Assembly (NCBI GenBank): GCA_030693145.1
Contig: JAUYBI010000068.1
Span: forward strand, 16,374 to 80,373
From: Candidatus Omnitrophota bacterium
GTDB taxonomy: Bacteria; Omnitrophota; Gorgyraeia; Gygaellales; Profunditerraquicolaceae
Direction: 5' to 3'
Length of the DNA: 64,000 bases
Shown here: piece by piece, positions 53,658 to 53,712 of the stretch
Layout: every line of letters starts with the position of its first letter
Numbering within the stretch: position 1 is the stretch's first letter
The notes under the pieces: model-generated
Told to the model about the DNA's origin: nothing
What the model saw: only the letters and a program-made list of their open reading frames with translations
Database searches by the model: none
Translations under genes and position numbers: made by a program

Positions 53658-53712
53658 GTCTGTCTGTCTGTCTGTCTGTCTGTCTGTCTGTCTGTCTGTC
53701 TGTCTGTCTGTC
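53658..53712. repeat. Tetranucleotide microsatellite (GTCT)n, about 14 units
   Basis: Perfect gtct repeats over about 55 nt, located 170-225 bp upstream of the DGR target gene start. Confidence 0.95.

Follow-up and report, generated by a model that had tools for sequence, protein, structure and literature searches.

The window, the whole 64,000-nt stretch of an Omnitrophota MAG analysed here, carries a DGR on its minus strand. In the direction of transcription, it comprises the target gene, which encodes a 494-aa protein (52002..53500, including the ribosome-binding site GGAGGG at 53495-53500; ATG at 53486; Pfam FGE-sulfatase, E = 3.3e-13), avd (51517-51855; Pfam bAvd, E = 4.1e-20) and the RT gene (50013-51074; Pfam RVT_1, E = 3.8e-21). 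A repeat search placed the VR in the 3' end of the target gene (52008-52135) and the TR between avd and the RT gene (51143-51270). The TR/VR pair is 128 nt long and 87% identical, and 17 of the 17 core mismatches lie at TR adenines. With its RT, Avd, adenine pattern and C-type-lectin-fold target, the locus is a canonical DGR, as an earlier sequence-only reading had proposed in naming the gene downstream of the tract described below as a DGR target. NCBI has an annotated protein identical to the target product, which comes from a Candidatus Omnitrophota MAG. No terminator-like site was found on the minus strand between the target gene and the RT gene; thus, a switch acting ahead of the target may gate the whole DGR.

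The surroundings of the DGR contain several further features. Directly past the RT gene lies an ORF of 2434 aa (42696-50000, minus strand), whose counterparts in relatives are 2207-2664 aa long and have Big_1 matches; it looks like a giant surface protein kept beside the DGR. Relatives have a 106-aa MutS_I-like ORF in the spacer that separates target gene and avd; the window has none. Just upstream of the target-gene leader is a Phd/YefM antitoxin and ParE-family toxin pair (54410-54938, minus strand), followed by an IS200-like Y1 transposase gene and two heptosyltransferase genes. Within the signal-peptide coding region of the target, a heptanucleotide repeat (AAGACAA x4.1 on the plus strand, TTGTCTT on the coding strand; 53406-53434) shows no sign of variation, since the signal peptides of close homologues are equal in length.

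Between about 172 and 226 nt upstream of the target-gene ATG, inside the transcribed leader, the window contains a tetranucleotide tract at 53658-53712, (GTCT)13.75 on the plus strand and (AGAC)13.75 on the minus strand, which is the coding and leader strand. Tandem Repeats Finder describes it with a period of 4, 13.8 copies, 100% matches and 0 indels, in agreement with the sequence itself, so that the perfect tract of ~55 nt noted in the sequence-only reading is real. A 16-nt (GTCT)4 probe produced 11 overlapping matches in the window versus 0 in 100 dinucleotide-preserving shuffles. The only repeats in the window with units of 1-6 nt and at least 5 copies are this tract and one (TC)5. In a survey of 796 kb, made up of the window and 79 homologous loci, perfect tetranucleotide repeats of at least 5 copies occurred only in the window tract and at the same leader site of one relative (L001). 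The presence of the tract in independent NCBI, JGI and Logan assemblies rules out an assembly artefact as its origin.

The tract has several sequence properties of a simple-sequence contingency locus, namely a perfect repeat, a unit that is not a multiple of 3 nt and a copy number above background. Its copy number also differs between close relatives, a comparison that is between lineages only, with flanks 83-93% identical. We consider it quite probable that the tract functions as a contingency element in one way or another. Two ways in which it might act as RNA were discarded. A role in RNA pairing is ruled out by the two unrelated units, AGAC and AAGC, found at this site among relatives, together with the predicted fold of the tract, which is fully single-stranded (no structure, 0 kcal/mol). 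Rho-loading sites are C-rich and G-poor; the repeat units are neither, which rules out such a site at the tract.

The leader that contains the tract begins with a sigma-70-like promoter at 53885..53912 (minus strand, as are all leader features), with TTGAAA, a 16-nt spacer and an extended -10 element TGtTATACT, which matches the consensus at 10 of 12 positions plus the TG. Its hexamers, TTGAAA and TATACT, are identical in three relatives (L001, L084 and L089), and the spacer differs there at 1-2 positions and by one base in length. Of the promoter-like sites on this strand, it is the nearest one upstream of the gene, and the consensus scan detected no other on the minus strand from 53885 to 53486. 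Since no promoter-like site lies between the tract and the gene, target transcripts must cross the terminator-like hairpin T1, the tract and two further such hairpins, T2 and T3, with the qualification that the promoter and terminator calls are generic consensus and thermodynamic predictions that may not match Omnitrophota signals. The tract had been taken to be promoter-proximal; the sole sigma-70-like site on the gene strand (53912-53885) instead lies upstream of a riboswitch, at a distance of 173 nt from the tract, with the complete riboswitch and T1 in between.

The riboswitch, absent from the sequence-only reading, is a c-di-GMP-I (GEMM-I) aptamer at 53784..53861. It matches Rfam RF01051 over the full model (1-87 of 87) at 65.8 bits (E = 1.2e-10; gathering score, 35), and it is present at 60-64 bits in L001, L084 and L089 and missing from L085. 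The candidate expression platform, T1, starts 24 nt past the aptamer and was identified by a terminator scan at 53729..53759 as a 10-bp stem (53759-53735) followed by U6 (-17 kcal/mol, z = -4.5). Its stem is preserved in L089 by a C-G to A-U double change, as read from the alignment, which is the sole compensatory change seen among the hairpins. In thermodynamic folding, T1 forms with or without the aptamer enforced, so that these folds do not tell an ON-type from an OFF-type switch.

Three bases past the U-run of T1 starts a Shine-Dalgarno sequence, GGAGA (53722..53726), 7 nt ahead of the ATG of a small leader ORF (53541..53714). Both GGAGA and ATG are retained in all five leaders that reach this point. 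The AGAC tract starts at the G of this ATG and codes for (TDRQ)n, and in its present frame the ORF encodes 57 aa (MTDRQTDRQ...VTPRP*). Gene callers annotated equivalent leader ORFs in L082 (52 aa) and L084 (69 aa). A separate mini-ORF of 4-5 codons (ATG GAG ... TGA; 53712-53728, minus strand) starts in the T1 U-run, and its TGA overlaps the leader ATG (ATGA) in the window, L001, L084, L085 and L089. A 3-nt deletion in L089 keeps its frame. The mini-ORF has no Shine-Dalgarno sequence of its own and may be a coincidence.

Downstream of the tract, the overlapping stops TAAGTAA (53644..53650) close two of the three frames, and the motif TAANTAA occurs in six of six leaders. Between these early stops and T2, the fold of the full leader contains a hairpin, H (TCAGCC-AGA-GGCTGA, 53615..53629), that may be a pause site. 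All 6 of its pairs are kept in four of the six leaders and one pair is lost in L080; in L001 the pairing is broken as aligned (83% of cells paired), where the alignment allows an alternative 6-bp stem, CTGTCA/TGACAG. T2 (53569..53613) has a 14-bp G+C core with A-tract and U-tract flanks and a folding energy of -27.4 kcal/mol (z = -9.5), and its 14 pairs are all invariant across the six leaders. This is the hairpin that the sequence-only reading had called a bidirectional terminator and placed at 53572-53620, with the tract between it and the gene start. The position was off, and the order is the reverse: the terminator (~53569-53613) separates the tract from the start codon at 53486. The last hairpin, T3 (53520..53554; stem 53554-53531), is terminator-like with a U-rich tail (-11.3 kcal/mol, z = -5.1); 100% of its cells are paired in five leaders, and it is deleted in L085. 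A covariation test of H, T2 and T3 spoke neither for nor against pairing, the sequences being too similar; for T2 it is uninformative because T2 is invariant.

The number of repeat units determines where translation of the leader ORF would end. Neither the AGAC nor the AAGC repeat contains a stop codon in any frame. In a frame simulation of the present allele (13.75 units), the frame from ATG 53714 is the long one, which runs through T2 and ends at a TAA (53541-53543) in the loop of T3, 31 nt beyond T2 and 57 nt ahead of the target ATG. Alleles with one or two more units would end upstream of T2, at TAAGTAA, which leaves 36 or 40 nt to the hairpin. In the five lineages with T3, the long frame meets its first stop 107 nt past TAANTAA, and the other two frames have 3-7 stops there. 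The open long frame could be partly a by-product of the conserved hairpin sequences.

We compared the leader of the window with those of five relatives, the flanks being 83-93% identical. All six carry a perfect tetranucleotide tract at exactly the same position. The window (AGAC x13.75), L001 (NCBI MAGs and Logan; AAGC x8.75) and L084 (JGI 3300009538; AGAC x22.5) are in the long frame. L089, a different contig from the same metagenome as L084 (AAGC x10.75), and L085 (JGI Ga0105164; AAGC x7.75) are in the short frame, which encodes peptides of 15-19 aa. In L080 (Logan; GCAA, at least 7.25 copies) the tract is cut by the contig end and the frame is not readable. Among the assessable lineages there are therefore three long and two short frames, a distribution that is not different from chance. 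Since both long and short frames are found, the leader ORF is not under ordinary frame conservation. The relatives thus display conservation of the tract together with turnover of its unit and length. All the differences in copy number are from one lineage to another, at a flank divergence of 7-17%. The sequences of L001, L081, L082 and L083 agree at 100% in their overlaps, which extend over 7.4 kb among the three MAGs and over 4.7 kb for L083. This covers the tract in those that have it, and the four were counted as one lineage because of this identity. The Logan k=31 contigs L080 and L083 end inside the tract, as expected of any repeat longer than k. Exact look-ups of Avd and of the target protein (P0001) returned no record, and we found no second assembly of the population to which the window belongs.

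The AAGC leaders except L001 have a single AGAC unit left at the 3' edge of the tract (...AAG-ACTCC), and the sequences suggest that two different seeds may have expanded at one site. L085 has a different promoter region, likewise upstream of the tract, and is without the riboswitch, T1 and T3. It retains the Shine-Dalgarno sequence, ATG, tract, TAANTAA and T2, which marks these elements as the core module. In L085 the segment of riboswitch, T1 and promoter is replaced by unrelated sequence (10540-10720, minus strand), in which a direct repeat (AGAGTAGTTT, twice) lies just upstream of a TGgTATACT -10 element and may be the operator of a protein regulator. The long leader frame of L085, with T3 gone, would end 5 nt ahead of the target ATG.

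The distribution of the leader is narrow. The target-protein family has 5326 matches in many phyla, and the leader is limited to a few Omnitrophota lineages with targets 72-83% identical to that of the window. It is absent from the close target relatives L002, L003, L086, L087, L090 and L091, and the related DGR targets P0005, P0009, P0006 and P0032, like those of L002 and L003, have other upstream contexts without it. A search of the leader peptide against 5.8 billion protein clusters gave no match. A T2 pattern scan of metagenomes returned one locus only, L085. Of the four scans of viral contigs (T2, the T1/Shine-Dalgarno junction and two ATG-plus-repeat patterns), three were without a match and the fourth found only L088, an unrelated chance match.

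In our interpretation of these observations, the tract supplies the mutable part of an attenuation switch that works through a leader peptide and gates the DGR target, a reading to which we assign a probability of roughly 0.6. Transcription would initiate at the promoter at 53912-53885, and the polymerase would first have to clear the c-di-GMP-I riboswitch and T1. A ribosome would load at GGAGA and the ATG at 53714 and read through (AGAC)n. Slipped-strand mispairing during replication would add or remove 4-nt units, shifting ribosomes among the three frames past the tract. In two frames, the low or OFF state, the ribosome would be released at TAAGTAA, 36 or 40 nt before T2, and T2 and T3 would fold, terminating transcription short of the target. 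In the third frame, the ON state, the ribosome would cross T2 and stop at the TAA in the T3 loop, its footprint also covering the 3' arm of T3. Both hairpins would then be prevented from folding, and RNA polymerase would enter the target and probably avd, the TR and the RT gene. The repeat number modulo 3 would thus set ON (one frame) versus OFF or low (two frames), and this stochastic and heritable gate would operate in series with the c-di-GMP riboswitch at T1. The allele in the window, with 13.75 units and the long frame, is predicted to be ON. The sequences themselves show the anatomy, the arithmetic of the frames and the pattern among relatives; we infer that slippage is frequent, that ribosomes translate the small ORF and that this translation suppresses termination.

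The closest known system is the pil1/pil3 pair of Streptococcus gallolyticus (S. gallolyticus), in which the frame of a leader ORF depends on the GCAGA repeats within it (Danne et al. 2014; PMC3894217). In pil1, low expression goes with a short leader peptide that ends 39 bp ahead of a terminator, and the figure given for the low state is a stop at least 28 nt upstream (PMC3894217). Out-of-frame alleles encode a longer peptide ending in or after the terminator, so that the ribosome blocks the hairpin and expression is high, a model backed by deletion of the terminator and by ATG and stop-codon mutants (PMC3894217). Both systems have a repeat inside a leader ORF with its own ribosome-binding site and start codon, and an intrinsic terminator, predicted in the Omnitrophota case, before the structural gene. 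The short peptide ends short of the terminator by ~39 bp in pil1 and by 36 or 40 nt here; the long peptide ends in or beyond the terminator, and the controlled gene specifies a surface structure. The repeat unit is the 5-nt GCAGA there and the 4-nt AGAC or AAGC here, with no sequence homology, and the ON state corresponds to two of three frames there and to one of three here. In the Omnitrophota leader, two terminators follow in tandem, and the long frame ends within the loop of the second one; upstream, a c-di-GMP riboswitch with a terminator of its own is present in four of the five leaders whose sequence extends to that region. It controls a DGR variable protein, and probably the whole DGR, rather than a pilus operon. 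Finally, the streptococcal switch was demonstrated experimentally in a Firmicute pathogen, whereas the present one belongs to uncultured Omnitrophota and is predicted from sequence. Since unit, downstream gene and phylum all differ, the two are analogues rather than homologues. By this analogy, we read the Omnitrophota leader as an independently evolved variant of the pil1 mechanism, stacked on a riboswitch and controlling a DGR.

Individual parts of this arrangement have counterparts elsewhere. The flgB and cmrRST leaders of Clostridioides difficile (C. difficile) combine a c-di-GMP riboswitch with a heritable, stochastic phase-variation element that acts past initiation; this element is a DNA segment inverted by the recombinase RecV, and at flgB it acts via Rho (PMC5386303, PMC7446863, PMC8844915). 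As proposed here, riboswitch and phase-variation element share one 5' leader, but the variable element is an invertible segment there and a slippage-prone repeat in a leader ORF with intrinsic terminators here. Tetranucleotide contingency loci, among them lic1 (CAAT)n, lgtC (GACA)n and mod (AGTC)n, are familiar from Haemophilus influenzae and Neisseria. They resemble the Omnitrophota tract in having a perfect tetranucleotide repeat right past the start codon, with the copy number setting the frame, and in carrying different units at homologous sites of different strains; (GACA)n of Haemophilus lgtC is the AGAC unit in another register. The repeat in those loci is in the structural gene, and frameshifting truncates the protein, whereas here it is in a leader ORF that would gate terminators and the structural gene is untouched. 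In the E. coli pyrBI and trp-type attenuators, a ribosome that closely trails RNA polymerase on an overlapping leader ORF prevents the terminator hairpin from forming. The position of that ribosome is set by nucleotide or amino-acid supply, in contrast to the heritable frameshift proposed here.

Four other explanations of the tract were weighed against the attenuation switch. According to the first, which we regard as unlikely, the length of the tract would act without translation, by adjusting how stable the RNA is or how the stretch from T1 to T2 is spaced or folded, giving a graded rather than frame-based output. There is precedent in the (AGAT)n repeat in the 5' UTR of Moraxella catarrhalis uspA2, reported to act via tract length. 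The location of the tract within the transcribed leader, the wide range of copy numbers (7.75 to 22.5) and the unstructured, single-stranded RNA all fit such a role. However, with two unrelated units, AGAC and AAGC, at the site, no sequence-specific partner is conserved. A role of length by itself also leaves unexplained the conserved Shine-Dalgarno sequence and ATG right before the tract, the conserved TAANTAA right after it and the single frame that stays open through T2.

A neutral microsatellite, kept by slippage at a permissive non-coding site and without regulatory effect, is in our estimate quite unlikely. The six close target relatives listed above (L002 to L091) manage without the leader, as this explanation would allow. 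Against it, long tetranucleotide tracts are otherwise missing from the 796 kb of comparable sequence, all six tracts are perfect, and two different seeds apparently expanded at the same spot, which start and stop signals bracket exactly as in the proven switch.

We also considered that the ORF might encode a genuine small protein whose (TDRQ)n or (SKQA)n stretch varies, in which case the tract would alter this protein and not regulate the downstream gene. An ORF with Shine-Dalgarno sequence and ATG, called by gene finders in L082 and L084, is what this would require, but two of the five lineages are frameshifted to 15-19 aa, the repeat peptide changes completely from lineage to lineage, two terminator hairpins encode the C-terminal half and none of the 5.8 billion protein clusters contains a homologue; we judge it very improbable. 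The remaining explanation, that of the sequence-only reading, in which a promoter-associated repeat alters -35/-10 spacing or the position of an upstream element, describes a kind of switch well known in Neisseria, Haemophilus and Mycoplasma, but it can practically be dismissed here: 173 nt separate the tract from the promoter-like site upstream of it, with a full riboswitch and terminator in between, none lies downstream of the tract on this strand, the different promoter of L085 is likewise upstream, and tracts of 31-90 nt, which begin at the ATG of a small ORF with a Shine-Dalgarno sequence and are followed by terminators, do not fit the role of a -35/-10 spacer. The core idea of that reading, a slipped-strand switch on the DGR target, is probably right in view of the perfect tracts in six leaders with two units, varied copy numbers and both frames; it is the promoter mode of action that has to be replaced.

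DGR variable proteins are usually discussed for their sequence diversification, and hardly anything is known of the timing of their expression. Our searches of the literature brought up no work in which a DGR is tied to either a repeat switch or a riboswitch. To our knowledge, demonstrations of the mechanism of leader-peptide repeat and terminator are limited to two pilus operons in a single streptococcal species. Read as an attenuation switch, the locus is a rarely documented kind of switch in a new form, in that the mechanism is known and the setting, with a riboswitch and a DGR, is new. If true, a case that evolved independently in an uncultured phylum from the environment would point to a design that is general and has been invented repeatedly. 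Such a design can be searched for as a Shine-Dalgarno sequence and ATG, a repeat unit that is not a multiple of 3, stops in some of the frames and a terminator.

More tentatively, and with considerable doubt on our part, the 430-nt leader may stack three layers of control on one hypervariable ligand-binding protein: c-di-GMP sensing, a heritable stochastic repeat switch working by ribosome-mediated antitermination, and DGR hypermutation. The repeat might then also switch mutagenic retrohoming, resulting in phase-variable hypermutation. Given the two repeat units at one site, selection would keep the site mutable rather than preserve any particular sequence. If true, Omnitrophota populations would hedge their bets on displaying a c-di-GMP-controlled, hypervariable surface binder; as a speculation, this would fit an attachment-dependent lifestyle.

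Other repeats were observed at this locus and upstream of more distant homologues. A 28-nt perfect palindrome, AGTAGsGGAsGTTTAAACsTCCsCTACT, is present in 3 copies in the window (7176-7203, 51097-51124 and 53972-53999) versus 0 expected. Two of the copies, one just past the TR and one just upstream of the leader promoter, bracket the target, avd and the TR, and the copy at 53972 sits in a segment apparently missing from the upstream region of L089. The palindrome could represent a REP/MITE-like element with a link to the IS200-like Y1 transposase (55199-55822). Short GC-rich hairpins, ATTCCCGC...GCGGGAAT and TCCCCGCGAAAGCGGGGA, recur in the target-avd and avd-TR spacers (51390-51440 and 51897-51916) and have a REP-type look. 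In L005, an (AC)13 repeat (4822-4847) lies ~155 nt upstream of a Bacteroidetes target homologue with 53% identity. A regex screen did not match the riboswitch motif upstream of that gene, and a leader ORF is not evident there; the (AC)13 possibly represents another, independent repeat switch in this protein family. In L014, tandem repeats of ~100 nt (GTCTCGCGCCAGCAGCGCGAGGCAGATGCCG...AAAATTAGGAATGTT...; ~4300-4600) lie upstream of a more distant Omnitrophota target homologue.
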